The position numbers were made by a program, and so were the translations under genes. Below are positions 3,007 to 28,019 of a stretch of DNA of 34,075 nucleotides, piece by piece. Positions within the stretch are counted from its first letter, which is position 1, and each line of letters opens with the position of its first letter. Source of the DNA: ANME-2 cluster archaeon (GTDB lineage: Archaea; Halobacteriota; Methanosarcinia; Methanosarcinales; Methanocomedenaceae). The stretch spans positions 1-34,075 of the forward strand of contig JAMJFQ010000003.1 in the NCBI GenBank assembly GCA_023544605.1, written 5' to 3'. The notes under the pieces are model-generated. The model did not search any database. It had not been told where the DNA came from and was given only the letters and a program-made list of their open reading frames with translations.

Positions 3007-3129
3007 ACACAATCTATCCATTTGAAATCGTGGGGTAAACTACGTATAACTATGGTGATTTATGCTCATATTCCGACAACAAAAGCAAAAAGGAATACTT
3101 ATTTTATGCCTGCCATCGTCATAGGGCTG

Positions 3130-4593
3130 ATGAATGCCAAACCTTTGGAATGGGCAGAAAAATATCGACCCCGGGTGTTGACAGAATTAGCAGGGCACCC
3201 TAATATTGTAAAAGAACTACTTGGGTGGGGGCAGGGCTGGGAGAAGGGTATACCTAAGGACAGGGCGCTGATACTGTACGGCAAACCTGGTATCGGCAAG
3301 ACCTCTGCAGCCTTTGCATTGGCAAACCAGATGGAATGGGATGTAATAGAACTCAACGCCAGTGACCAGCGCACGGCAAGTATCATCCAGAAAGTAGCCG
3401 GTTCTGCAAGTATGATGGGGACCTTTGATGGCACTTCCGGACGGCGCCTCGTCATACTGGATGAAGCCGATAACCTGCACGGCAACTATGACCGGGGCGG
3501 TGCCAGGGCCATCATCAATGTTGTCAAGAACACAAAACAACCTCTCATCCTGATAGCCAACGAGTTCTATGACATGGACTCTGCGCTGCGCCTGGCATGT
3601 AAACCGGTACAGTTTCGGGTAATGAACAACACTACCATGGTGAATGTACTCAAATCTATCTGCAGGCAAGAAGGTGTCATGGCGGGTGTTGGCGTTATAG
3701 AGCAGATCGCCGACAATGCCGGTGGAGATCTGCGAAGCGCTATTAATGACCTGCAGGCTATCGCTATAGGGAAACATGAACTTGATGTGGATGATATCGT
3801 CACTGCTCCAAGAGATACCAGGGAAACAGTTTTTAGGGCAATGGACAAGATATTCAAAGCCTCTGACATGAGGTCTGCCCAGGAAGCTGCATGGCATGTG
3901 GATGAGAGTCCTGATAATCTTATCAACTGGATAGACGAGAACCTGCCTGTAGGATATACGGATGAGAGGGATATGTCGGCTGGTTTTTGCCAGTTGTCCA
4001 GGGCAGACCAGTTCCTTGGTCGGGTAAGGATCAGGCAGAACTACAGGCTGTGGCGGTATGCCAGCCTGTTCATGACAGGCGGTGTGGCTGCTGTTAAGAC
4101 CCGGAACTATACAGGTTATAACAAATACCAGGCTCCTCAATTCTGGAAGAAACTTGGACAGACCAGGGCAAAACGCAATATAAGGGATTCCCTTGCCGGT
4201 AAGATTGGGGGTATATGCCATGTATCCAAGAGATATGCACGCTCAGACCTTATCTGGTTCTTTAAGCATATGATGAATAGTAAGGAACATGCTGTTGATG
4301 TGGCTGCTGAATTGGAAATGAATCCTGATGAGATAGCGTTTTTACTTGATACCAAGGCATCCACCAAGAAGGTCAAGACTATTTATGAGTCAGCCCAGCA
4401 ATTGATTCAGGCACGAGTGGAACATGATATAGAGGTGTTCGGCGGATTTACACATACAGCGCCGGTAGATGAACATCAGCTTGAACTGGACTTAATTGAA
4501 GCAGACAATAATGGCGATGCAGATGAGCCACTGGAAGATAACATTGCCAGCAAAGGAGATACAAAAAACCAGAGTTCGTTATTCGATTTTTGA
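3130..4593 (+). CDS. rfcL: Replication factor C large subunit
   Basis: WAEKYRP, Walker A GKPGIGKT, IELNASDQR, Walker B ILDEAD, GDLRSAINDLQ, C-terminal PIP box QSSLFDF; start set at MNAKP. Confidence 0.96.
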   Translation: MNAKPLEWAEKYRPRVLTELAGHPNIVKELLGWGQGWEKGIPKDRALILYGKPGIGKTSAAFALANQMEWDVIELNASDQRTASIIQKVAGSASMMGTFDGTSGRRLVILDEADNLHGNYDRGGARAIINVVKNTKQPLILIANEFYDMDSALRLACKPVQFRVMNNTTMVNVLKSICRQEGVMAGVGVIEQIADNAGGDLRSAINDLQAIAIGKHELDVDDIVTAPRDTRETVFRAMDKIFKASDMRSAQEAAWHVDESPDNLINWIDENLPVGYTDERDMSAGFCQLSRADQFLGRVRIRQNYRLWRYASLFMTGGVAAVKTRNYTGYNKYQAPQFWKKLGQTRAKRNIRDSLAGKIGGICHVSKRYARSDLIWFFKHMMNSKEHAVDVAAELEMNPDEIAFLLDTKASTKKVKTIYESAQQLIQARVEHDIEVFGGFTHTAPVDEHQLELDLIEADNNGDADEPLEDNIASKGDTKNQSSLFDF

Positions 4594-19446: not shown

Positions 19447-19524
19447 GGGCTCGTGGCTTAGCCAGGATATAGCGCCGGGCTTCTAACCCGGATGTCGAGG
19501 GTTCGAATCCCTCCGGGCCCGCCA
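19447..19524 (+). tRNA. tRNA-Arg(UCU) with encoded CCA
   Basis: Acceptor GGGCTCG/CGGGCCC, anticodon arm CCGGG-CTTCTAA-CCCGG, T arm GAGGG-TTCGAAT-CCCTC. Confidence 0.97.
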
Positions 19525-19548: not shown

Positions 19549-19654
<106 letters not shown>

Positions 19655-20153: not shown

Positions 20154-20255
20154 AAAATACTATTATCTTGTCACAGACCTGTTATTGGATTAATACCACC
20201 CTCACATCAAAACCTTTATGAACATCGATAACTACAATAATCAATGGTGAACAAT

Positions 20256-20654
20256 ATGGTCAAATTATCCCCTGACGTTAAGGAAGTAATCCAAAAACAG
20301 AAACCTCTGCCTATTGCAACAGCAGATAGTACCGGTAAGCCTAATGTGGTTTTTGTTGGTACGTGGAAGTTCATTGATGATGAGACTATAATGATCGTGG
20401 ATAATTTCTTTAAAAAAACCGCAGTAAATCTCAAAGCCAATCCCAGGCTGTCCATTGTGGCTTATGATAGTGAATCCAAGCAGTCATATCAGGTCAAGGG
20501 TTCGGTAGATTATCTTGATGAGGGCGACCGTTTCGATGAAGCCAAAGCCATAGCACAAGCAAAGAACCTACCAGGCAAGGCTGTTGTAATATTCCACATT
20601 GAAGAGGTCTATGATGCCGTGTACGGAAAACATGCCGGTGAACAAATAGCTTAA
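20256..20654 (+). CDS. Pyridoxamine 5'-phosphate oxidase-family FMN-binding protein
   Basis: IATAD..GKPNV, DNFFKKT..NL..NP, SYQVKG; start set after GGTGA. Confidence 0.88.
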   Translation: MVKLSPDVKEVIQKQKPLPIATADSTGKPNVVFVGTWKFIDDETIMIVDNFFKKTAVNLKANPRLSIVAYDSESKQSYQVKGSVDYLDEGDRFDEAKAIAQAKNLPGKAVVIFHIEEVYDAVYGKHAGEQIA

Positions 20655-20691: not shown

Positions 20692-21045
20692 TTGACAGAA
20701 ACAGCATCGAAAAAACAGAATGATAAAGACGTATACATTGGTGATGAATTCTCTGAAGAAGAGGATTCACAGGGAGAACAGGAGGTCAATGAACTGGAAG
20801 GCTTGTATGACCTTTTAATACCGCCTGGAGTACCTGAATCATTGATAGTGGAACTGGTGGATGAGTTTGATCTGGAACCGGTGACCAGACTTGCCAATGT
20901 TGACATCGTTGAAGTTGACCCTCGCGAACTTATGGCACTGCGCGGTGATTTGGAAATAGTAAACGAGGCCCACGATTACATGGTCAAGCGAATGCATGAA
21001 ATAACGAATGGTGGATATAAAAGCCCGTGGGTAGATAACGATTGA
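20692..21045 (+). CDS. Acidic hypothetical protein
   Basis: 117-aa ORF with YDLLIPPGVP and LRGDLE motifs; GGTGA upstream of the TTG start. Confidence 0.75.
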   Translation: MTETASKKQNDKDVYIGDEFSEEEDSQGEQEVNELEGLYDLLIPPGVPESLIVELVDEFDLEPVTRLANVDIVEVDPRELMALRGDLEIVNEAHDYMVKRMHEITNGGYKSPWVDND

Positions 21046-21047
21046 AC

Positions 21048-21761
21048 CTATCTGCTGCTATTTGATCTTTCCCTGTACAGAGCTGCACCCAGGGCATTGA
21101 CCAGCTGGGGTGCAATCGGTACTTCTATTTTTGAATCCAGCACAGCATTTACTGCATCGACTATACCTGTGTTCTGTACCGTACCACCAATGAGCATTAC
21201 CTTATCGGCAGGCGGGACCATCTGGGCGATACGCCGTGCAAAAGCCTGGTGCAGTCCGTATATGACGTCTTCCATAGTGTATCCCCCAACAAGCTGAGAG
21301 ATCATCTCAGATATAGCGAACACGCCACATGTGTTGTTTATCTGTACTTCTTTTGTTGCCCGTTGGTGCATATCGCCCAGAGAGTCGACAGGTATGTCAA
21401 AATAGCGTGCGGCCAGTTCTAAAAAAGCGCCTGTGCCTGCACTGCACTTATCGTTTATAATAAAGGTATTACTGCGCAGGTCGATGACTTTTGTGTCCTG
21501 CCCGCCGATATCAATAATAACCTGTGCCTCTGGGTCATGATATCTGGCACCCAGTGATGCAGCGGTTATTTCAGTTATTGCAGTAAAGTGGGGTACTTTC
21601 TTCCTGAAATAGCCGGTGGATATAATGCGCTTTTCATCCTGTCCATCATCTATCAGTTCCCTCCAGCGATGGCTCGGCACAACTTCTGAGAAAATTATCT
21701 CTCCTGTTTCCATATGCACTATTTTGGCAGTGGTACTGCCCACATCAAGCCCTATATTCAC
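21048..21761 (-). CDS. ATP-dependent [4Fe-4S] activase (HgdC/BadF/BcrA-D family, ASKHA ATPase)
   Basis: GLDVGSTTAK, ISTGY, EITA, IDIGGQDTK, NDKCSAGTG, TCGVFA; overlaps the upstream gene by 4 bp. Confidence 0.92.
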   Translation of the reverse strand: MNIGLDVGSTTAKIVHMETGEIIFSEVVPSHRWRELIDDGQDEKRIISTGYFRKKVPHFTAITEITAASLGARYHDPEAQVIIDIGGQDTKVIDLRSNTFIINDKCSAGTGAFLELAARYFDIPVDSLGDMHQRATKEVQINNTCGVFAISEMISQLVGGYTMEDVIYGLHQAFARRIAQMVPPADKVMLIGGTVQNTGIVDAVNAVLDSKIEVPIAPQLVNALGAALYRERSNSSR

Positions 21762-22699
21762 GGCATTACCTCCAGCATCTCTGCAAAGGCTTCCAGCCTG
21801 AGCTTGAGCTGTTCAGAAGACGGGCGGGGCAGGTCGCCCTGGACGGTCAAGATGGGGTAATCAAGGTGCTGTCTGAATATTTCATCTTCCAGGGTATGAT
21901 GGCAGGCAAATTGGGTATAATGTATGACTCCATCTACACGCCTCTGGCGCAGTTCATCCTGTATGAACCATACCCTGGTCTCAATGGGCCCGGCAAATGA
22001 GTACTTTGTATAATTACGGGCCAGGGAATCAAGGTCACACCCCCCCAGACGTATGAACTCGTACGGCAGTTCATCATATACTATATGCAATCCGAAACCT
22101 TCAGCCACCTCATGGAAGTCCGGATATATGGGCGGGACACCAATAAGTGCCACCCTGCTGGTATATTCTACATCTGCTTCGGGTATGCTGTCAAGTGTTC
22201 TTTCAAATGCATCCAGGTCTCCTGCCAGGTCACTGAACGATATCAGTGCTGAGAACACATCACTTGCCCGTGCACGGTCATTCACCCTTTGTTCATCCAG
22301 TGCCTTGCCCCTGGATTTCAGGTCAGTGATGCGGGTAATTATTCCGTCATCTTGTACGCCGCCAAGAAACAAGCTGAGTTTTTCCAGTTGTGATCTAAAG
22401 TAATCTGTATCCCCATCAAAGGGATAAAAGAAATAATGAGTAGGCTTACCGCTCAGCTCTGCTTTTTGCCCATCCACCAGTGCGTTGTGGCAGTCACCGC
22501 CGGCAACCACTACCAGCGAATCAATGTCCAGTTCACCGCTCAGGATCATATCCCTCCACACAGCGGTCCAGGCACACAGTTTACTAGCCGGACTTGAGGA
22601 GGAGCCAGGTACTACATTGTTCACATCCAGGGGGCGCTTACCGCATGCATAAATGAGTTCAGGCGGCACCAGGGCAGTTATACCGACCGTATCTTTCAT
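21758..22699 (-). CDS. 2-hydroxyacyl-CoA dehydratase-family (HgdA/B, FldB/C-like) Fe-S protein, single subunit
   Basis: VPPELIYACG, three cluster cysteines (KLCAW, GGDCH, QFACH), VDGVIHY, EQLKLRLEAFAEML; start set at MKDTV because the track's start lies inside a MITE end. Confidence 0.88.
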   Translation of the reverse strand: MKDTVGITALVPPELIYACGKRPLDVNNVVPGSSSSPASKLCAWTAVWRDMILSGELDIDSLVVVAGGDCHNALVDGQKAELSGKPTHYFFYPFDGDTDYFRSQLEKLSLFLGGVQDDGIITRITDLKSRGKALDEQRVNDRARASDVFSALISFSDLAGDLDAFERTLDSIPEADVEYTSRVALIGVPPIYPDFHEVAEGFGLHIVYDELPYEFIRLGGCDLDSLARNYTKYSFAGPIETRVWFIQDELRQRRVDGVIHYTQFACHHTLEDEIFRQHLDYPILTVQGDLPRPSSEQLKLRLEAFAEMLEVMP

Positions 22700-22743
22700 C
22701 GGGTGACAATAGATTTGTTCACTATTATCTCTTACCCCCAACA

Positions 22744-23112
22744 GGCACTGTACCAAAAATCAGTTATTTTGTTGACACCGACTTAGGGTAAAATCTGTGT
22801 TAATCAGTGAAATCTGTGTCTGAAAAATAAATAGACACAGATTTCACAGATTCACACTGATTTGTAGTCGCATTTGCATCTGATATATTCGCTGTATAAC
22901 TGGATTTTGGTATTGTGTCATTCGTATTCATTGCCAAATCCACTGAAAACGTTATGAAAGATTGGGATTTCGGAAAAGTTATTAAGGGTGCTGTTTATTG
23001 TTGTCATGTTTGATGCAAAGTAATATCATCACTTTATATTACAAATAAATTATGTATTTATTGTGATGATATTACAACTTTGTATTACATAACTGGATTA
23101 TGGGACTGTGCC
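22744..23112 (+). mobile_element. Composite non-autonomous element (MITE), 369 bp, with 9-bp target site duplication
   Basis: Ends GGCACTGTACCAAAAATCAGTTAT and ATAACTGGATTATGGGACTGTGCC (19/24 inverted match); CCCCCAACA on both flanks (22735-22743, 23113-23121); extra internal end at 22896-22919; hairpins at 22791-22863 and 23020-23075. Confidence 0.9.
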
Positions 23113-23158: not shown

Positions 23159-24199
23159 ATGAAACTATCGGATTTTGATTACCACCTACCACAGGATATG
23201 ATAGCCCAGAAACCTGCCGACCCACGGGATTCTTCAAGATTGATGGTGCTCGATGAAAACGAGCGGCATCACAGTACTTTTTCTGAACTTCCCCATTTAT
23301 CGCATTCCCAAGATCTGTTGATATTGAATGACAGCAGGGTGATACCGGCCAGGTTATACGGTACCAAAAATACAGGTGGGAAAGTAGAAGTGCTACTGGT
23401 TAAACGGCTTGAGGATAAGTACTATGAATGCCTGGTCAGGGGTAGGGTAAAGGTGGGGGGGAAACTCAATTTTACGACTCTATCAGGCACAATAGAGGAA
23501 CGTGTAGACTCCCATACAGGATACCGTTATAATATCAGGTTCCAGTGTGATGAGGATTTCATGTCCTGTCTCTTCGTGGATGGAGTCATGCCAGTACCGC
23601 CCTATATTAAAGAGCATCTGGATGATGGAGAGAGGTACCAGACAATTTATTCAAGGGATGAAGGCTCTATTGCGGCACCCACTGCCGGACTGCATTTTAC
23701 AGCACAGTTACTTGACAGGATTAAGAAGATGGGAGTAAGGCTGGCATTTATCACACTGCACGTGGGTGTAGGCACATTCATGCCGGTTCGTGCCGAAGAT
23801 GTGGAAGAGCATACCATGGAGAGCGAATATTATACCATTGACGAAGATACCGCTCGTGCCATTAATGATACCATAAAGGGGGGAGGCAGGATAATCGTGG
23901 TCGGTACAACCACGGTCCGGGCGCTGGAAAGTGCGAATTGGCACAATGGCAACATTGCACCATCCCGGGGCTGGAGTGAGATATTCATACATCCCCCTTA
24001 CCAGTTCAAGACACCCATCAGTGGTCTGATCACCAATTTCCACCTTCCAAGATCAACACTGCTAATGCTGATCAGTGCCTATGCTGGCAGGGATGTGGTG
24101 CTGGCGGCATACAGCGAGGCCATTGCTAAGGGTTACAGGTTCTACAGTTTTGGAGATGCGATGTTCATTATGGGTAACAAGGAGGGGAAGAATGTTTGA
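23159..24199 (+). CDS. queA: tRNA preQ1(34) S-adenosylmethionine ribosyltransferase-isomerase
   Basis: MKLSDFDYHLP..IAQ.P, NDSRVIPARL, PPYI, YQT, AAPTAGLHFT, TLHVG.GTF.PV, VGTT..RALES, TNFHLPRSTLLML, YRFYSFGDAM. Confidence 0.98.
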   Translation: MKLSDFDYHLPQDMIAQKPADPRDSSRLMVLDENERHHSTFSELPHLSHSQDLLILNDSRVIPARLYGTKNTGGKVEVLLVKRLEDKYYECLVRGRVKVGGKLNFTTLSGTIEERVDSHTGYRYNIRFQCDEDFMSCLFVDGVMPVPPYIKEHLDDGERYQTIYSRDEGSIAAPTAGLHFTAQLLDRIKKMGVRLAFITLHVGVGTFMPVRAEDVEEHTMESEYYTIDEDTARAINDTIKGGGRIIVVGTTTVRALESANWHNGNIAPSRGWSEIFIHPPYQFKTPISGLITNFHLPRSTLLMLISAYAGRDVVLAAYSEAIAKGYRFYSFGDAMFIMGNKEGKNV

Positions 24200-25307
24200 G
24201 ATAGTGCGCCAGGAAAAAATGTCTGGAGCAAGGGTGGGAAAACTGACCACACCTCACCAGGTTGTAGATACCCCGGCATTCATGCCTGTGGCGACCAAGG
24301 CCACGATCAAGACGCTTACTCCCAACGAGATACGTGAGATGGGAACCCAGGCCATCATAAGCAATGCCTTCCACCTCTATCTTAGCCCGGGTTACGAACT
24401 GATCCAGGAGGCAGGTGGCCTGCATACATTCATGGATTGGGACGGTGCCATTTTCACGGACAGCGGCGGGTTCCAGATATTGCGCAAGGAGTTCAGGTTC
24501 AAACTGAACAACAAGGGTATAAGTTATGTAAATTCCAGGGACGCAAAGCGATATATGTATACCCCTGAGCTGTGTATGGAAATACAGGGTGCCCTGGGTT
24601 CTGACGTGGCAATGGTGCTGGATGACTGCCCGCCCTGGGGCAGCACCCGTGATGAGGTCATGGAGTCGGTTTGCAGGACAGTGAACTGGGGGCAGCGCAG
24701 CCTTGATGCCAGGTGCAATAAAAACCAGCTGGTCTTTGCCATATTGCAGGGGGGGACATATCCTGAGATGCGGGAAGCCTGTGCCAGTCGATTAGTGGAT
24801 ATGGACTTTGACGGTTATGGTATCGGGGGATTGAGTATTGGCGAGCCAAAAGATGTCATGCATGAGACTATCAGGCTGAACCTGACCCAGATACCGCCTG
24901 AGAAGCCCCGCTACCTGATGGGAGTGGGCTCGCCCGTGGAACTGCTGGAATCCATATCATTGGGGGTTGACATCTTTGACAGTGCATTCCCCACCCGCAA
25001 CGCCCGGCACCAGACCGTGATGACCCGATACGGGCAGATGGATCTGCGGCGCTCATCCCTGGTTAGGGATTTCAGACCCATTGATGAGAAATGCGGCTGC
25101 TATACCTGCAGGCATTTTTCCAGGGCATATCTGTACCACCTGTTCAAGGAATCAGAACTGCTGGCCATGCGGCTTGCATCCATACATAATGTCCATTTCC
25201 TGCAAGAGTTGATGAGAGAGGCAAGGAATGCTATTTCAGAGGAGCGGTACAGTGAGTTTCGGGAACAGTTCAAGCGTGAATATTCAAGTCCGGCCAATAC
25301 AGCCTAA
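24192..25307 (+). CDS. tgt: Bacterial-type tRNA-guanine(34) transglycosylase
   Basis: TPAFMPV, NAFHL, TDSGGFQ, LDDC, QGG, GGLSIGE, PRYLMGVG, GVDIFD, PTRNAR, CxCxxC...H Zn site; 371 aa with no PUA domain; overlaps the queA stop. Confidence 0.95.
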   Translation: MFEIVRQEKMSGARVGKLTTPHQVVDTPAFMPVATKATIKTLTPNEIREMGTQAIISNAFHLYLSPGYELIQEAGGLHTFMDWDGAIFTDSGGFQILRKEFRFKLNNKGISYVNSRDAKRYMYTPELCMEIQGALGSDVAMVLDDCPPWGSTRDEVMESVCRTVNWGQRSLDARCNKNQLVFAILQGGTYPEMREACASRLVDMDFDGYGIGGLSIGEPKDVMHETIRLNLTQIPPEKPRYLMGVGSPVELLESISLGVDIFDSAFPTRNARHQTVMTRYGQMDLRRSSLVRDFRPIDEKCGCYTCRHFSRAYLYHLFKESELLAMRLASIHNVHFLQELMREARNAISEERYSEFREQFKREYSSPANTA

Positions 25308-25531
25308 GTCTTCTGGAGAGTTATCCTGAAAATACTGTTCTCATTTACCCATTTCAATACCCTGCACCGCTTATGGAATATGGACATAAGGTCAGGCAGT
25401 AGGGAAGCACAATCAGAAACCACTTCCAGTCTTTCACCGTGGGACATCTGCTTTAACCTTGAATTTGTCAAGAACAACGGGATAGGGCAGGTTTTTCCAA
25501 TAGTATCGAGGAACTGGATATTCATTGTCAT
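25304..25531 (-). CDS. TusA/SirA-family sulfur carrier
   Basis: LDTIGKTCPIP motif, GERLEVVSD, ~75 aa; start set at MTMNIQ. Confidence 0.75.
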   Translation of the reverse strand: MTMNIQFLDTIGKTCPIPLFLTNSRLKQMSHGERLEVVSDCASLLPDLMSIFHKRCRVLKWVNENSIFRITLQKT

Positions 25532-25763
25532 ATCTCTTTTCTTCCTGTAATATTCTTTGCCAAAATACCGGACCTTTATTCTCATTATTTGGAATGAAAA
25601 ATACATATTTAATAGTTTCCGTATTTGCATGGATAATGGTCTAATTGTGACAATATTGAACAAACATTATACAAATCGGTAATTATTGATTTAAAATAGT
25701 CGTATAAAAAAGCTTCACTGGCTGTGAGTTAAGTATTGTTTACATTAGCATTATACGGGATTT

Positions 25764-26177
25764 TCACACTATGTGCTTAGCCACTTCCCCGGCAAGTTCC
25801 TGGAACTCTTCCTGTGACGGTGTGGTCCCATCATATTTGTATTCAATGCCATCCCCGGTGTTTCGCGGTACAATATGGCAGTGGAAGTGGTGAATAACCT
25901 GGCCTGCCACTTCTCCGTGATTGATAACAAGATTGAACCCTTCAGGTCCTATAACTGCCTGTAAGCCATTGACAACCTTTTTTACCGTCCTGAACACTGC
26001 CGCAACATCATTGTCATCCAGATCGGTGATCTTTTCACCATGCTTTTTTGGTATGACCAATGTATGGCCCCGGTTGTTAGGGTTTATGTCCAGAAATGCG
26101 AGGGTATCATCGTCCTCGTATATGGTATAGCTCGGTATCTCTCCAGAGATTATTTTACAAAATATGCAATCTTCCAT
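25764..26177 (-). CDS. HIT family nucleotide hydrolase
   Basis: CIFCKI, AFLDINP, GHTLVIPK, AGQVIHHFHCHIVPR histidine triad. Confidence 0.95.
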   Translation of the reverse strand: MEDCIFCKIISGEIPSYTIYEDDDTLAFLDINPNNRGHTLVIPKKHGEKITDLDDNDVAAVFRTVKKVVNGLQAVIGPEGFNLVINHGEVAGQVIHHFHCHIVPRNTGDGIEYKYDGTTPSQEEFQELAGEVAKHIV

Positions 26178-26183
26178 TACAAA

Positions 26184-27347
26184 TCACCTTTTATGATTGT
26201 TCTGTGGAATATTCATGTGTTTGAACTGCATATTCCTCATTATATCCTTCATTGTTACGATCCCTTTTATCCTGCTATCCTGGATGACCAGAAGCCTACC
26301 GATATTATTTTTAGCAATGGTCTGGAGGGCATGATATGCCTCATGTTCAGGACGTACTGAAATAATATCCTTTGTCATAATATCCCTCACATGGACAGTA
26401 TTGTGCAGTTCCATTGACACTTTTTGCACATCTTCGAAGGTTACAACTCCCATTGGGGGCTTATCCAGGTCTTCCTGCACTGGATATCCCATATGCTTGA
26501 ACCTGAACATAACATCCACAAGCTGGGATATGGTCCAGTCCGGGGGTATATATATTAAATCCGGCGCATGGGTCATGACATCTTTCACCTTGATCCCTTC
26601 AAGGCTTATGGCAAAGAACGTTTCCCGCTCTTCACCCTGCGCACCATAGTACACAAATAACGCTATTAAGACAAGTATTATGTTTATTGTGAGCAAACCG
26701 AAAATTCCCATTAAGAATGCAAAGGTCTTACCTATCGAAACTGCCATGCGGGTGGCATCCATGTACGGCAGCCATAATGCCAGAAATGCCCTTAGGACAC
26801 GGCCCCCGTCCATGGGAAAAGCTGGCAGCAGGTTGAATATACCCAGTACCAGGTTGTAGAAGGAAATGATCCCGGCTGTTATAAGTACCGCATTTTTAGC
26901 GTTCATCCCCATCTCGCCCATGTCCGCAGGACCATAATACATATAGAAAGCATAGGTCACTATACCTATAACCAGGCTTATGCCCGGACCTGCGGCAGCC
27001 ATTTTCAGTTCAAGCTTTGGGTCGCGGGGTATTTCCTCCATCTGGGCCACTCCTCCGAATACAAAAAGGGTTATGCTCTTGATATCCAGTCCATTTCTTT
27101 TTGCAACGAATGAATGGCTTATCTCATGCAGCAGGATAGTAGAGAAGAACAGGATAGATGCAATGGTACTGAAAACAAGTTTTTCCATCAATGATATGTC
27201 CATGCCGTAGAAACCCAGTACGAGTGTACCTATCTGGAATTCAAATGATGAAAAGTAGTAAATGAACAATAGTAGTATAAAGAGGAAAGTGATGTGTAGT
27301 TGTATAGGAATCCCGATGACTTTTCCGATCTGTACTGACCATTTCAC
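26184..27347 (-). CDS. Site-2 protease (M50) with CBS domain pair
   Basis: LHEISH, AAAGP, FNLLPAFPMDGGR, two C-terminal CBS repeats. Confidence 0.95.
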   Translation of the reverse strand: MKWSVQIGKVIGIPIQLHITFLFILLLFIYYFSSFEFQIGTLVLGFYGMDISLMEKLVFSTIASILFFSTILLHEISHSFVAKRNGLDIKSITLFVFGGVAQMEEIPRDPKLELKMAAAGPGISLVIGIVTYAFYMYYGPADMGEMGMNAKNAVLITAGIISFYNLVLGIFNLLPAFPMDGGRVLRAFLALWLPYMDATRMAVSIGKTFAFLMGIFGLLTINIILVLIALFVYYGAQGEERETFFAISLEGIKVKDVMTHAPDLIYIPPDWTISQLVDVMFRFKHMGYPVQEDLDKPPMGVVTFEDVQKVSMELHNTVHVRDIMTKDIISVRPEHEAYHALQTIAKNNIGRLLVIQDSRIKGIVTMKDIMRNMQFKHMNIPQNNHKR

Positions 27348-27484: not shown

Positions 27485-27925
27485 TCATTTCTTGTTAACA
27501 GTAGACTTAGTTTGGTGTATCTTTTCATGGCATTGTGAACACAATGAAGTAAGGTTTTCAGGCTTGTTCCGGCCACCGTTTGACCTTGAGGTCTGGTGGT
27601 GCACTTCATCGGCAGGCCGGCCGCACATGGTACACACAAATCCATCCCGCACCCTGGTCCTTTGTCTTTGCTGATGGGAAAGTGGTCCTGTGGGTGCCCC
27701 TCCCACAAAGGGCCAGCGCTCAAGCAGATCGATCCACCCGTCCAGTGCCTTCTCCTGCCCGCGCTCGGTAATGCCCCACCGCTGGCAATGGTCTACGAAC
27801 CCGAGCAGTTCATGATAACCCTGGTAACCGGCGGACAGTTCGGCTTTCTTGCTCTGGAACAGGCGGGTGAGCCGCTGTATTTTGGTGCGGTGTTTCATGC
27901 TCCTTTTCAGGTCGGTATCCTTCAT
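27485..27925 (-). CDS. HNH endonuclease (Zn-binding) with an unrecognised N-terminal domain
   Basis: RDGFVCTMCG...EVHH...GG.N..ENLTSLCSQCHEKIH; start uncertain (27925 or 27943). Confidence 0.85.
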   Translation of the reverse strand: MKDTDLKRSMKHRTKIQRLTRLFQSKKAELSAGYQGYHELLGFVDHCQRWGITERGQEKALDGWIDLLERWPFVGGAPTGPLSHQQRQRTRVRDGFVCTMCGRPADEVHHQTSRSNGGRNKPENLTSLCSQCHEKIHQTKSTVNKK

Positions 27926-28019
27926 GCGGGCATAACAGGTCAATCAGCACATAAAAATGTTATCCAATATCCCGATATTTCCCAAAAGATTAATAAAATA
28001 AAATCAATAGTCCTTTACT

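Follow-up and report, generated by a model that had tools for sequence, protein, structure and literature searches.

Queuosine genes in archaea are an oddity, since textbooks place only archaeosine there. Bacterial-type queuosine (Q) genes have already been published for Methanosarcinales, and their presence there is not a new finding. In 34 archaeal genomes, 12 of them of DPANN, Castelle et al. (2021, Front Microbiol; PMC8204110) described QueA, QueH and Tgt from DPANN and Methanosarcinales and interpreted them as the three final steps by which bacteria make Q. The main text of the paper mentions QueF, preQ0 and preQ1 0 times, and in its passages on these genes the source of preQ1 and an HGD-D-like neighbour are not raised; its Supplementary Table 5, covering seven neighbours each way, may include the HGD-D gene. 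QueF chemistry has been termed 'a unique class of biocatalysts' in a passage of PMC13740343 and 'a biologically unique reaction' in a passage of PMC7317782. YhhQ/QPTR and QueT are the only known precursor-transporter families in the relevant passages of PMC11130926.

The locus described here lies in a window of 34,075 nucleotides, the whole stretch that was analyzed, and its genome shares with the published cases the same three genes and the same archaeal order (PMC8204110). Divergently beside queA, the window carries an HGD-D-like gene and an activase gene. Our main reading is a queuosine pathway in which the HGD-D-like protein would reduce preQ0, and we give this whole chain a probability of about 0.42.

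The queA-tgt genes and their products

The first gene, queA (23159..24199, plus strand), is an ATG-initiated ORF of 346 aa annotated as tRNA preQ1(34) S-adenosylmethionine ribosyltransferase-isomerase. Its product scored 426.8 bits with NCBIfam NF001140 (cut-off 324), where residues 1-338 matched profile positions 1-343 of 346, and 397.3 bits with TIGR00113 (cut-off 267.45), and Pfam PF02547 was matched at full length (positions 1-322 of 322). By these sequence matches the protein is QueA, and SAM-dependent conversion of preQ1-tRNA to oQ-tRNA is its predicted activity. The second gene, tgt (24192..25307, plus strand), encodes a bacterial-type tRNA guanosine(34) transglycosylase of 371 aa. The end of queA and the start of tgt have 8 nt in common, the overlap reading ATGTTTGA, and direct reading of the sequence locates a Shine-Dalgarno-like AAGGAGGGG (24179..24187, plus strand) within the end of queA, before the tgt start. 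The true start is the ATG at 24192 and not the GTG at 24075 of the listed ORF. These coordinates agree with the initial annotation, which had described a full-length QueA overlapping a bacterial-type Tgt of this length. In a search of the window with Rfam at the gathering threshold, neither a preQ1 riboswitch nor any other known RNA was detected except two tRNAs.

Tgt scored 443.8 bits with the bacterial G34 model TIGR00430 (cut-off 306.75) and just 163.5 bits with the archaeal G15 model TIGR00432 (cut-off 350), and it has no C-terminal extension, consistent with the bacterial signatures and the lack of a PUA extension noted before. The motifs DSGGFQ, LDDC, GGLSIGE, YLMGVG, the aspartate of FDS..PTR and CxCxxC...H were all found, and their columns align with a GGLAVGE-type chain (10fb) and with the Thermotoga maritima TGT (2ash; own motifs DHC and GGLSIGE), the best solved relative (E 2e-103). 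The catalytic and pocket residues (the Asp of DSGG, LD-x-C, GGL-x-[VI]-GE and the nucleophile Asp of FD...PTR) are conserved across 28 aligned homologues, and the Zn site, CGCYTC with the downstream IHN histidine, occupies the same columns as in solved TGTs. The pocket Cys (LDDC) and Ile (GGLSIGE) are presumably the counterparts of Cys158 and Val233 of the Z. mobilis enzyme. According to passages of PMC11570991, queuine-salvaging TGTs have the signature GG[LS][AS]G and the E. coli type has GGLAVG; the window Tgt reads GGLSIG, with a bulky Ile where the queuine salvagers have GG[LS][AS]G. T. maritima, which has the same GGLSIGE motif, matched QueF models in our control runs. Judged from these residues, the pocket is of the preQ1 type and not of the queuine type, as had been proposed, and exchange of G34 for preQ1 in GUN tRNAs is predicted.

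Residence of the locus in the archaeal genome

The host is an ANME-2a-like metagenome-assembled genome (MAG), 97.2% complete. Because the genes are bacterial in type, the source is a MAG of 129 contigs, and MITE-like repeats adjoin queA and break the assembly elsewhere, we considered whether queA-tgt might stem from bacterial contamination or from chimeric joining of the contig. The repeats are two adjacent elements (22744..23112; ~22744-22920 and 22920-23112) with terminal inverted repeats (I2/I3), and they are inserted in the spacer that separates queA from the divergent HGD-D-like gene; in four congeners this spacer spans just 34-52 bp between the two matches. The first element has matches on 30 further contigs of the genome with 79-100% identity, full-length on ~16 of them and on the others only at a contig end, and a 100% copy of the second element is found on contig C124.

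The flanks are archaeal and encode Kae1, an RFC-type AAA+ ATPase (3022-4593), PAC2, DUF473, a digeranylgeranylglycerophospholipid reductase and a multihaem cytochrome c. The neighbors of queA-tgt recur in the same order in other species-level genomes of the family, with HGD-D, activase and PNPOx on one side and TusA-like, HIT, M50-CBS and HNH genes on the other, and the estimated contamination of the MAG is 0. Tgt identity is 77-90% in sister archaea and does not exceed 50% in the nearest bacterial sequence, and in the Tgt tree a 100* branch separates the 25 archaeal sequences from the 59 sampled bacteria. Conserved synteny and phylogeny thus lead us to reject contamination or chimerism, the probability of which is practically nil. 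The initial annotation had argued against contamination from the archaeal flanks and had suggested a Tgt tree; the neighbors proved archaeal, their order is kept in related genomes, and the tree separates archaeal Tgt from the sampled bacteria.

Queuosine and archaeosine genes of the host and the absence of QueF

A genome search, also suggested in the initial annotation, recovered arcTGT (628 bits) and ArcS (673 bits), both over curated cut-offs, QueC (198 bits, cut-off 150.3), a QueD-like PTPS gene and QueH, the last with 203 bits on PF02677 (cut-off 23.5) on contig C126, unlinked to queA-tgt. The QueD-like gene scored 75.5 on PF01242 (cut-off 22.4), but 72.9 on TIGR03367 (cut-off 89.25); the ORF beside it, on the opposite strand, is an FtsJ/TRAM methyltransferase. 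In the same genome, TIGR00276 gave no match for QueG, and TIGR03365 did not identify a QueE. A sister genome has a radical-SAM gene close to queA-tgt, which was rejected as QueE because it is NrdG; another TIGR03365 match was rejected because it is AhbC. QueH is present in 9 of the 10 HGD-D-type genomes outside the order. The substrate tRNA genes recovered from this 97.2%-complete MAG are tRNA-Asp(GTC) and tRNA-Asn(GTT); no gene for tRNA-His or tRNA-Tyr was found. Since arcTGT, ArcS and QueC are encoded in the same genome, a preQ0 pool shared with archaeosine, as proposed earlier, is plausible.

For QueF, no match at E<=1 was obtained in the host genome with TIGR03139, TIGR03138 or PF14489. 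Three models were tried and the controls were positive, so that we rejected the possibility that QueF was overlooked by one model; the same search did recover QueF from control genomes and from 54 of the 331 Thermoplasmata. Above the PF14489 cut-off, QueF occurs in only three of 284 Methanosarcinales genomes, and in 0 of 10 genomes that carry HGD-D outside the order; two of these are closed chromosomes. All of the 14 sampled PF14489 ORFs, Thermoplasmata included, passed the preQ1-synthase equivalog TIGR03139 with 107-162 bits (cut-off 86.9) and contain E-[LS]-K-S-L-K, which we take to be the NADPH motif; the possibility that the Thermoplasmata matches are QueF-like archaeosine synthases was rejected for these 14 ORFs on both grounds. 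As QueF is absent, the encoded pathway cannot run without some source of preQ1. The operon had been called intact, which holds for both genes and not for the pathway, where QueF and the known precursor transporters were not found.

One such source would be uptake, in which preQ1 comes from bacterial neighbors (e.g. syntrophic partners) via a transporter of an unknown family, and the HGD-D pair has an unrelated function and just shares its ancestry and a transferred block with queA-tgt. ANME-2a live in consortia with bacteria, QueF is absent, and preQ1 salvage by bacteria that possess only tgt, queA and queG/H is a pattern known from the passages of PMC11130926. However, YhhQ/QPTR and QueT are missing from the host genome and from 13 of 13 further HGD-D-type genomes, 9 of them at least 90% complete. 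Moreover, these archaea make their own preQ0, and it would be strange if members of two phyla, from very different habitats, all depended on importing its reduced form.

Spread and selection of queA-tgt in archaea

QueA was found above cut-off in 64 of 284 Methanosarcinales genomes and in 75 of 331 sampled Thermoplasmata genomes, so the earlier view that Q genes occur in only a few archaeal lineages was an understatement. The wide Thermoplasmata spread shown here is absent from the passages of PMC8204110. When any match at E<=0.001 was counted, the tallies per Methanosarcinales family were 15/19 (f1), 1/1 (f2), 1/6 (f3), 0/27 (f4), 49/53 (f5) and 0/177 (f6). Bacterial-type Tgt is above cut-off in 16 of 20 genomes of the host family, the four misses being 57-82% complete, and queA-tgt adjacency is retained in 13 of 15 examined loci. 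QueA orthologues are 79-84% identical within the genus and 51-53% in Methanoperedens-type genomes. Q genes are thus near-universal in two methane-oxidising families and frequent in Thermoplasmata, and because they are so widespread, Q34 may be normal in the translation of environmentally important archaea.

With the required QueF missing, it is conceivable that no queuosine is made, that position 34 receives preQ0 from Tgt, or nothing at all, and that QueA and QueH are unused relics or serve some other purpose; bacterial Tgt accepts preQ0. Against this, both genes of the pair are intact and evolve under purifying selection (dN/dS 0.12 for queA and 0.08 for tgt, i.e. ~0.1), they are kept with queH across families and phyla, and comparison of the Tgt pocket between QueF-type and HGD-D-type archaea showed no key-column difference, which would have hinted at preQ0 insertion. 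Relics would not persist in this manner; intactness, purifying selection, joint retention and the unchanged pocket therefore make idle genes unlikely, and we consider this explanation very improbable. It is highly probable that queA-tgt is genuine, long-resident and selectively maintained and that, with queH, these genes, which are present as such, serve the predicted conversion of G34 in GUN tRNAs to queuosine.

The HGD-D-like protein and its activase

The gene divergent from queA (21758..22699, minus strand) encodes an HGD-D-like Fe-S protein of ~313 aa, the candidate preQ0 reductase. It starts at Met20 of a 332-aa ORF extending to 22756; the closest homologues have a length of 313 aa in public gene calls and cover 94% of the ORF, and the Atlas record begins at residue 20. 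The family bears only generic names in public records. The protein scored 93.5 bits with PF06050 (cut-off 28.4), and in a Foldseek search its AF2 model (pLDDT 88.4) matched BzdNO (TM 0.80), DCCP (0.77), HadBC and also MbdON, with TM 0.70-0.80 and E values of 1e-11 to 1e-14. Four Cys are invariant among 14 orthologues. As far as the profile match and the modeled fold can tell, the protein is a member of the 2-hydroxyacyl-CoA dehydratase / benzoyl-CoA reductase / double-cubane superfamily. It fails the DCCP equivalog NF040772 (33.4 bits, cut-off 350, C-terminal part only), and in the window and related loci a single HGD-D ORF stands beside the activase, with no alpha and beta subunit pair.

The activase gene (21048..21761, minus strand; 237 aa), of the BcrAD/BadFG-type ATPase family, has a start that overlaps the HGD-D-like stop by 4 nt, and its product scored 182.4 bits with TIGR00241 (cut-off 125.4) and 126.6 with PF01869. 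In 55 of 65 loci, the HGD-D match is followed immediately downstream by an activase homologue. An HGD-D protein with an activase is a textbook pair, and this fold and partner ATPase are those of ATP-driven low-potential reductases. We know of no nitrile reduction among the activities of the superfamily. The HGD-D-like protein does not belong to the QueF family, as no PF14489/TIGR03139 match exists anywhere in the genome; our suggestion, made from sequence, is that it may work like QueF and not that it is a QueF. Together with its activase it is a tentative candidate for replacing QueF in the step from preQ0 to preQ1, with chances we would put somewhat short of even.

Linkage and distribution of HGD-D, QueA and QueF

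Among the 284 Methanosarcinales genomes, counting any QueA match at E<=0.001 (67 genomes), QueA and HGD-D occur together in 65, QueA only in 2, HGD-D only in 8 and neither in 209; relatedness inflates these co-occurrence counts. On the QueA tree only two contrasts on well-supported branches (five in all) differ in HGD-D, too few independent contrasts for any test to reach significance. The arrangement tgt<-queA / HGD-D->activase is found in all seven genomes of the genus of the window that have both genes, and the same order occurs in seven Thermoplasmata-type MAG loci (six titled Thermoplasmata, one Methanobacteriota) whose Tgt is only 47-53% identical. In five Methanoperedens-type and three Thermoplasmata-type loci, queH is 3-7 kb from HGD-D. 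HGD-D therefore adjoins queA-tgt or queH in three lineages, ANME-2a, Methanoperedens-type and Thermoplasmata, and the HGD-D tree and the Tgt tree recover the same main clades. In most Methanoperedens-type and ANME-2a loci outside the genus of the window, HGD-D is not within 10 kb of queA, and HGD-D was within 6 kb of bacterial Tgt in 0 of 74 loci. The whole pattern could come from one ancestral package spread by transfer.

In the 331 Thermoplasmata genomes, all 13 HGD-D-positives had a QueA match, full length in 12, five of the 13 being distant paralogues (the one checked is 25% identical). The 75 QueA-positive genomes divided into 46 with QueF only, 12 with HGD-D only, 17 with neither and 0 with both. 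This exclusion of QueF and HGD-D gave p = 2e-6 by Fisher's test with genomes counted irrespective of kinship, and p = 8e-4, likewise irrespective of kinship, when only the seven close orthologues were used. Two genomes, G009 and G065, carry QueF together with HGD-D.

Several genomes have HGD-D without QueA, as would be expected if preQ1 were taken up and the pair had nothing to do with it. G218, a complete Methanosarcinaceae genome, has neither QueA nor QueH, and its HGD-D and activase stand beside a HerA-like ATPase; in the closed genome G285, an intact HGD-D is next to an 84-residue queA remnant. Co-pseudogenisation of HGD-D with queA in G285 was rejected, because the stop codon precedes the start of HGD-D, which is an intact gene. 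The 17 QueA-positive Thermoplasmata with neither gene point in the same direction, either to another preQ1 source or to incomplete genomes. Uptake, however, leaves unexplained both the siting of HGD-D by queA-tgt or queH in three lineages and its mutual exclusion with QueF, and on balance we regard it as unlikely, though as the most serious alternative.

The linkage to queH as well as to queA-tgt would also suit a function in another Q step, with the HGD-D pair as an extra or alternative epoxyqueuosine reductase, a reductive QueH activator or a maker of a further Q derivative, and with preQ1 from another enzyme. The dehydratase branch of the superfamily classically serves to remove oxygen by radical chemistry, and the fold match to HadBC equals that to DCCP. 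The gene excluded by HGD-D is, however, QueF, and since QueH is present in the host and in most HGD-D-type genomes outside the order, the epoxyqueuosine step is already covered. We therefore consider a role in another Q step improbable.

Proposed pathway

In the pathway we favor, the divergently encoded HGD-D-like protein, with a [4Fe-4S] cluster, and its ATP-driven activase would convert preQ0 to preQ1. The activase would feed low-potential electrons to the HGD-D-like protein, and the nitrile would be bound at the cluster and undergo a four-electron reduction to the aminomethyl group, the substrate being either the free preQ0 base or preQ0-tRNA. Tgt would then swap G34 of GUN-anticodon tRNAs for preQ1, QueA would form oQ by adding the epoxycyclopentanediol supplied by SAM, and the reduction of oQ to Q would fall to QueH. 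Archaeosine at G15 would be made in parallel by arcTGT and ArcS, both modifications drawing preQ0 from the QueC/QueD route.

QueF would have been replaced in this way in ANME-2a/b, Methanoperedenaceae, some Thermoplasmata and a Methanocellales MAG. The Q module (HGD-D, tgt-queA and sometimes queH) would travel between archaeal phyla and plug into the preQ0 supply of archaeosine. That the HGD-D/activase pair is a new ATP-driven Fe-S nitrile reductase unrelated to QueF, and that it moved between phyla in a module with tgt-queA, is a possibility we put forward as speculative.

The genomes thus supply a specific candidate for the preQ1 step. If correct, a second nitrile reductase, mechanistically unrelated to QueF, would carry out the same reaction, a result of interest to those who study tRNA modification, Fe-S enzymes or biocatalysis. 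Within the dehydratase / benzoyl-CoA reductase superfamily, a branch that is widespread but unannotated would then gain a function. To our knowledge, this would be the first physiological substrate for the short single-subunit branch of the superfamily. If the candidate fails, the gap stays and points to an unknown transporter or to metabolite sharing in methane-oxidising consortia.

Comparison with known systems

Our literature search found no work linking queuosine with Methanoperedens, and among the matches listed only a general gut-metalloenzyme review joined queuosine or preQ0 with the HGD-D superfamily. The locus shares with canonical queA-tgt operons the adjacency, the translational coupling and a Tgt pocket like that of Thermotoga maritima TGT (GGLSIGE). 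With the canonical de novo pathway (FolE-QueD-QueE-QueC-QueF-Tgt-QueA-QueG/QueH) its genome shares QueC, QueD-like, Tgt, QueA and QueH; it differs in having no QueF, in using QueH in place of QueG, and in that preQ0 also serves archaeosine. The late Q steps and the lack of QueF are shared with preQ1-salvaging bacteria (tgt + queA + queG/H), which, in the passages of PMC11130926, have no preQ0 synthesis and have a known transporter (QueT/QrtT or YhhQ/QPTR). Unlike them, these archaea make preQ0 and are without both transporter families.

The HGD-D-like protein has in common with HadBC (3o3m), BzdNO (8s02), MbdON (9g87) and DCCP (6eno) the Pfam HGD-D domain and the fold, the conserved C-terminal cluster cysteine and the adjacent BcrAD/BadFG-type activase. 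It differs from them in an identity of only 14-20% and in being a single 313-aa subunit and not an alpha-beta pair, and its locus has no CoA-ester pathway genes nearby. QueF is its proposed functional equivalent, in that both would supply preQ1 to Tgt, and the two are distributed in a complementary manner among QueA-positive Thermoplasmata. QueF is an NADPH-dependent preQ0 nitrile reductase of the T-fold, with no relation to HGD-D in sequence or fold, and it acts through a covalent thioimide on Cys with 2 NADPH, whereas the candidate would be an Fe-S protein fed by an ATPase.

The queA and tgt genes

The queA gene is an ATG-initiated ORF at 23159-24199 on the plus strand, encoding 346 aa. It is followed on the same strand by tgt, whose frame is listed from GTG 24075 and whose start at ATG 24192 gives a protein of 371 aa. 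As read from the sequence, AAGGAGGGG lies ahead of this ATG and ATGTTTGA is the overlap of the tgt start with the queA stop. QueA scored 426.8 bits against NF001140 (cut-off 324), while Tgt scored 443.8 bits against TIGR00430, the bacterial G34 equivalog (cut-off 306.75), and only 163.5 against the archaeal G15 model (cut-off 350). Pfam matches span the full length of both proteins. The nearest solved structure to Tgt was the Thermotoga maritima TGT (2ash, E = 2e-103), and on alignment with solved TGTs the columns agree at the Asp of DSGG, the Cys of D-x-C, GGLSIGE, the Asp of FD..PTR and the CxCxxC...H zinc site. The full-length QueA overlapping a 371-aa bacterial-type Tgt, as described in the initial annotation, is thus borne out by ORF coordinates, family scores and motif alignment. 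Within the family, dN/dS was 0.12 for queA and 0.08 for tgt, at a dS of about 0.9-1.9 that is near saturation.

The pocket had been assigned to the preQ1-inserting rather than the queuine-inserting type, with reference to Z. mobilis Tgt residues Cys158 and Val233. GGLSIGE is also the motif of the T. maritima TGT. The signature given in PMC11570991 is GG[LS][AS]G for queuine salvagers versus GGLAVG for the E. coli type; judged by this motif, the window Tgt, GGLSIG with a bulky Ile, belongs with the predicted preQ1 type, and the assignment holds.

Residence and spread among archaea

The genome to which the window belongs is 1.63 Mb in 129 contigs, 97.2% complete and 0% contaminated, and the window is the whole of contig C23. 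The remaining gene content of the window is archaeal (Kae1, an RFC-type AAA+ ATPase at 3022-4593, PAC2, DUF473, a lipid reductase and a multihaem cytochrome). Among species-representative genomes, the closest Tgt proteins came from six MAGs named 'Methanosarcinales archaeon' or 'Candidatus Methanocomedens' (77-90% identity), followed by one Thermoplasmata MAG (53%) and then bacteria (43-50%). Bacterial-type Tgt was over cut-off in 16 of the 20 own-family genomes, the four misses being 57-82% complete, and queA and tgt were adjacent in 13 of 15 loci examined. Because the same synteny recurs around queA-tgt, a contaminant or chimeric join is ruled out for practical purposes.

Trees of QueA and Tgt had been proposed as a guide to donor and spread. 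In a quick maximum-likelihood tree of Tgt, a branch with an SH-aLRT of 100 separated all 25 archaeal sequences from the 59 bacterial ones; the sample, picked for similarity to the query, does not allow a donor to be named. QueA was over cut-off in 64 of the 284 genomes of the order Methanosarcinales. With all matches at E ≤ 0.001 included, the families gave 15/19 (f1), 1/1 (f2), 1/6 (f3), 0/27 (f4), 49/53 (f5) and 0/177 (f6); judged by the titles of matching loci, f1 corresponds to ANME-2a/b and f5 to the Methanoperedens family. In a sample of 331 Thermoplasmata genomes (G284-G619), QueA was over cut-off in 75, of which 46 also carry a bona fide QueF. Restriction to only a few archaeal lineages, as formerly stated, does not agree with these counts.

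A complete or partial bacterial queuosine pathway was described by Castelle et al. 2021 (PMC8204110) for 34 genomes of archaea, of which DPANN account for 12. The legend of Fig. 4 of that paper names 'some Euryarchaeota (Methanosarcinales)', and its main text has 0 occurrences each of QueF, preQ0 and preQ1. The presence of queA-tgt in this order is already known, and is more widespread than the initial annotation held. By the profile matches, the canonical QueF-dependent pathway seems common in Thermoplasmata, well beyond the 34 genomes of the 2021 paper. We found no paper on queuosine in Methanoperedens, although the limited literature coverage makes this no proof of its being unpublished.

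Several individual loci deserve mention. The top QueA score of the Thermoplasmata sample, 432.8 bits (L184, G575:C74 13641-14660), groups in the tree with Megasphaera-type bacterial QueA; either its contig is a contaminant or the gene was acquired recently in a transfer of its own. At another Thermoplasmata locus (L124:7705-9939, minus strand), a simple ORF finder read queA and tgt as one frame of 744 codons, which could be a QueA-Tgt fusion; by a second search, the frame holding this QueA is just 400 aa long. In the Methanoperedens-type genome G085 (L096:9321-10100, f5), queA is immediately preceded by a gene for SAM hydroxide adenosyltransferase (DUF62), and tgt is followed by an AIR-synthase-related gene; neither neighbor was seen at other annotated f5 loci. 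Downstream of tgt in the window, all on the minus strand, are a TusA-like sulfur-carrier ORF (25304-25663), a HIT hydrolase (25764-26177), an M50 protease with CBS domains (26184-27347) and a small ORF for an HNH endonuclease that weakly matches IscB-like proteins (27485-27943). The order HIT, M50-CBS, HNH is kept in both annotated sister genomes (L102, L103), and the TusA-like ORF is again beside tgt in L103 and L015; none of the four has an evident tie to queuosine.

The gap between preQ0 and preQ1

Profile searches of the own genome, which the initial annotation had suggested, found arcTGT (628 bits), ArcS (673 bits), QueC (198 bits), a QueD-like PTPS gene and QueH (203 bits, PF02677), the last on contig C126 between ribonucleotide reductase and aminotransferase genes. 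QueG gave no match, and QueE was not found with one model, whose weak matches were identified as AhbC and NrdG. Genes for tRNA-Asp(GTC) and tRNA-Asn(GTT) are present; those for tRNA-His and tRNA-Tyr were not found in this genome, and MAGs often miss tRNA genes. The window itself carries tRNA-Arg(TCT) at 19447-19524 and then tRNA-Thr(GGT) at 19549-19652, both found by Rfam and neither a queuosine substrate; tRNA-Thr has a 32-nt anticodon-loop intron and is detected by ARAGORN only with intron search on.

QueF was not found in the own genome with TIGR03139, TIGR03138 or PF14489 at E ≤ 1. In the order, PF14489 was over cut-off in only three of the 284 genomes (G009, G065 and G186), two of them QueA-positive. 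Failure of the search is rejected as the explanation, since the same search was positive in 54 of the 331 Thermoplasmata. All 14 PF14489 ORFs sampled (12 from Thermoplasmata, with those of G009 and G065) scored above the cut-off of TIGR03139, the preQ1-synthase equivalog (107-162 bits vs 86.9), and are therefore true QueF rather than QueF-like archaeosine synthases. YhhQ/QPTR (PF02592) and QueT (PF06177), described in PMC11130926 as the only known families of queuosine-precursor transporters, were likewise not found in the own genome. As predicted from these matches, the genome encodes the late queuosine steps and a preQ0 supply, without the link between them. The initial interpretation was right as far as stated, but it had been published (PMC8204110), its spread is wider, and the pathway, without QueF and the known salvage routes, is not intact.

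A gene pair divergent from queA

Divergent from queA is an ORF of 332 aa at 21758-22756 on the minus strand, which encodes an HGD-D-like Fe-S protein (hereafter HGD-D) of about 313 aa if started at Met20, as judged from public gene calls and an Atlas record. The gene for a BcrAD/BadFG-type activase ATPase (21048-21761, minus strand, 237 aa) follows, and its start overlaps the stop of the ORF. We nominate this adjacent ATP-dependent Fe-S pair as a candidate for the missing preQ0 reductase, with a probability of roughly 0.4, because of its gene neighborhood, its linkage across phyla and a distribution that excludes QueF, all described below. The main rival, uptake of preQ1 through an unknown transporter, is to us somewhat less probable; YhhQ and QueT were absent from all 13 further HGD-D-type genomes searched, nine of them at least 90% complete.

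Searching the 284 genomes with the window protein (E ≤ 1e-10) gave HGD-D in 17/19 (f1), 1/1 (f2), 2/6 (f3), 0/27 (f4), 50/53 (f5) and 2/177 (f6), a distribution that nearly repeats that of QueA. When every QueA match at E ≤ 0.001 was accepted (67 genomes), 65 genomes had both and 209 had neither; two had QueA only (G076 and G094, 81% and 63% complete) and eight HGD-D only (G002, G010, G025, G054, G088, G095, G218 and G232). The clearest exception to co-occurrence is G218, a complete Methanosarcinaceae genome with an HGD-D orthologue (56% identical) and activase (L196, C1 3202563-3204200) without QueA or QueH. There a HerA-like ATPase and two large ORFs without annotation lie upstream of the pair, which may be a transferred island.

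The two genes are divergent neighbors in all seven genomes of the window genus that hold both, with 34-52 bp between the matches in four of them, roughly 0.4 kb in the window and 1.8-2.5 kb in two. At 22744-23112 the window spacer contains a side-by-side pair of MITE-like elements bearing terminal inverted repeats; since the spacer is so short in the four congeners, these are taken to have inserted into the promoter region that both genes share. Thirty further contigs carry sequence 79-100% identical to the first element (about 177 bp), about 16 of them in full and the remainder just at a contig end, so it is probably a cause of the assembly's fragmentation. Contig C124 has a copy 100% identical to the second (about 193 bp). 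A MITE-like element is also found at 133-309 of the window and on contigs C35, C96, C124, C129 and others of the genome.

Among 65 loci retrieved with the HGD-D protein, a full queA was within the flank in 10 and a fragment in one. Seven of the 10 belong to Thermoplasmata-type MAGs, of which six bear the title Thermoplasmata and one Methanobacteriota, and have the same tgt<-queA | HGD-D(->activase) layout as the window, at identities to it of only 47-53% for Tgt and 55-60% for HGD-D. A queH gene was 3-7 kb from HGD-D in five Methanoperedens-type (L153, L158, L161, L163, L164) and three Thermoplasmata-type loci (L123-L125). Two results on linkage weigh against the candidate: most Methanoperedens-type loci have no queuosine gene near HGD-D, and HGD-D was within 6 kb of tgt in none of 74 bacterial Tgt loci. 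The main clades of the HGD-D tree are those of the Tgt tree, and in both, one Thermoplasmata group falls outside a weakly supported group (81-84) of other Thermoplasmata and Methanosarcinales; these matching shapes fit joint transfer. On a closed chromosome labelled Methanomassiliicoccales (L150, G285:C1 ~1972279-1974055), an intact HGD-D lies beside an 84-residue N-terminal queA remnant, with no tgt within 10 kb and an intact QueH elsewhere, which looks like a recent loss of queA-tgt.

HGD-D and QueF outside the order

QueF was found in none of 10 HGD-D-carrying genomes outside the order, nine of which have full-length QueA and nine QueH. In the 331 Thermoplasmata, 54 were positive for QueF and 13 for HGD-D (profile A1, E ≤ 1e-30). 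The 75 QueA-positive genomes comprised 46 with QueF only, 12 with HGD-D only, 17 with neither and none with both (Fisher p = 2e-6, relatedness ignored; 8e-4 with the seven close orthologues only). Five of the 13 HGD-D matches were far weaker, about 170 bits vs 448-555 with profile A1, and the one checked was 25% identical to the window protein on a very long branch. These distant proteins of about 322 aa occur in G327, G415, G573, G597 and G603 (e.g. L187:10518-11483), all QueA-positive and QueF-negative. The G597 copy is separated from queA by 5.6 kb and lies behind genes for pyruvate and indolepyruvate oxidoreductases; in the 14 kb covered there, no homologue of the activase turned up.

The p-values ignore relatedness. 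The whole pattern may instead derive from one ancestral QueF-less package spread by transfer. In the QueA tree, QueF-type and HGD-D-type Thermoplasmata are interleaved, and one clade (SH-aLRT 98) unites four distant-HGD-D genomes with three QueF genomes. An independent-pairs test on this tree had only two contrasts on well-supported branches (five in all), too few for any test to reach significance. The reading of HGD-D as a preQ0 reductase is weakened by the eight HGD-D-only genomes, by G285, by G009 and G065, which have QueF and HGD-D together, and by the 17 QueA-positive Thermoplasmata with neither. The Tgt pocket did not differ between QueF-type and HGD-D-type archaea, and thus gives no hint whether preQ0 would be reduced as free base or on tRNA.

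The HGD-D-like protein and its relatives

The window protein scored 93.5 bits against Pfam HGD-D and the activase 182 bits against TIGR00241; public records hold only generic names for the HGD-D-like family, and bacterial HGD-D clusters of 330 aa are hinted at in Chloroflexota and Bacillota. For HGD-D, a dN/dS of 0.11 indicates purifying selection. Invariant among orthologues are C38, C61, C89 and C285 (ORF numbering) and several histidines, C285 being aligned to a cysteine conserved in DCCP and HadC. In 12 ANME-2a-type loci (L108-L117, L121, L103), even with queA elsewhere, the activase gene adjoins a gene for a PNPOx/FMN-binding-split-barrel protein, which is absent from Methanoperedens-type and Thermoplasmata loci. 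In the window it lies at 20244-20654 (plus strand, 136 aa, weak F420-PPOX-class match), separated from the activase by an acidic ORF without family (20692-21045, plus strand, 117 aa). In the own family, this flavoprotein might assist the HGD-D system in electron transfer.

Among the best-matching literature, no paper save a general review joined queuosine or preQ0 with the dehydratase/benzoyl-CoA reductase superfamily, which is no proof of novelty. Nitrile reduction is, to our knowledge, not a documented activity of this superfamily; acetylene is among the reported substrates of DCCP. An AlphaFold model built with 14 orthologues as input (pLDDT 88.4, pTM 0.86) had its structural matches, at 14-20% identity, in 2-hydroxyisocaproyl-CoA dehydratase, BzdNO, MbdON and DCCP. 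The HGD-D-like protein is a single subunit, with no alpha-beta pair. The predicted fold is common with the double-cubane cluster protein DCCP (TM 0.77), although the score against the DCCP equivalog is far below cut-off (33 bits vs 350), and it is likewise shared with the class I benzoyl-CoA reductase BzdNO (TM 0.80).
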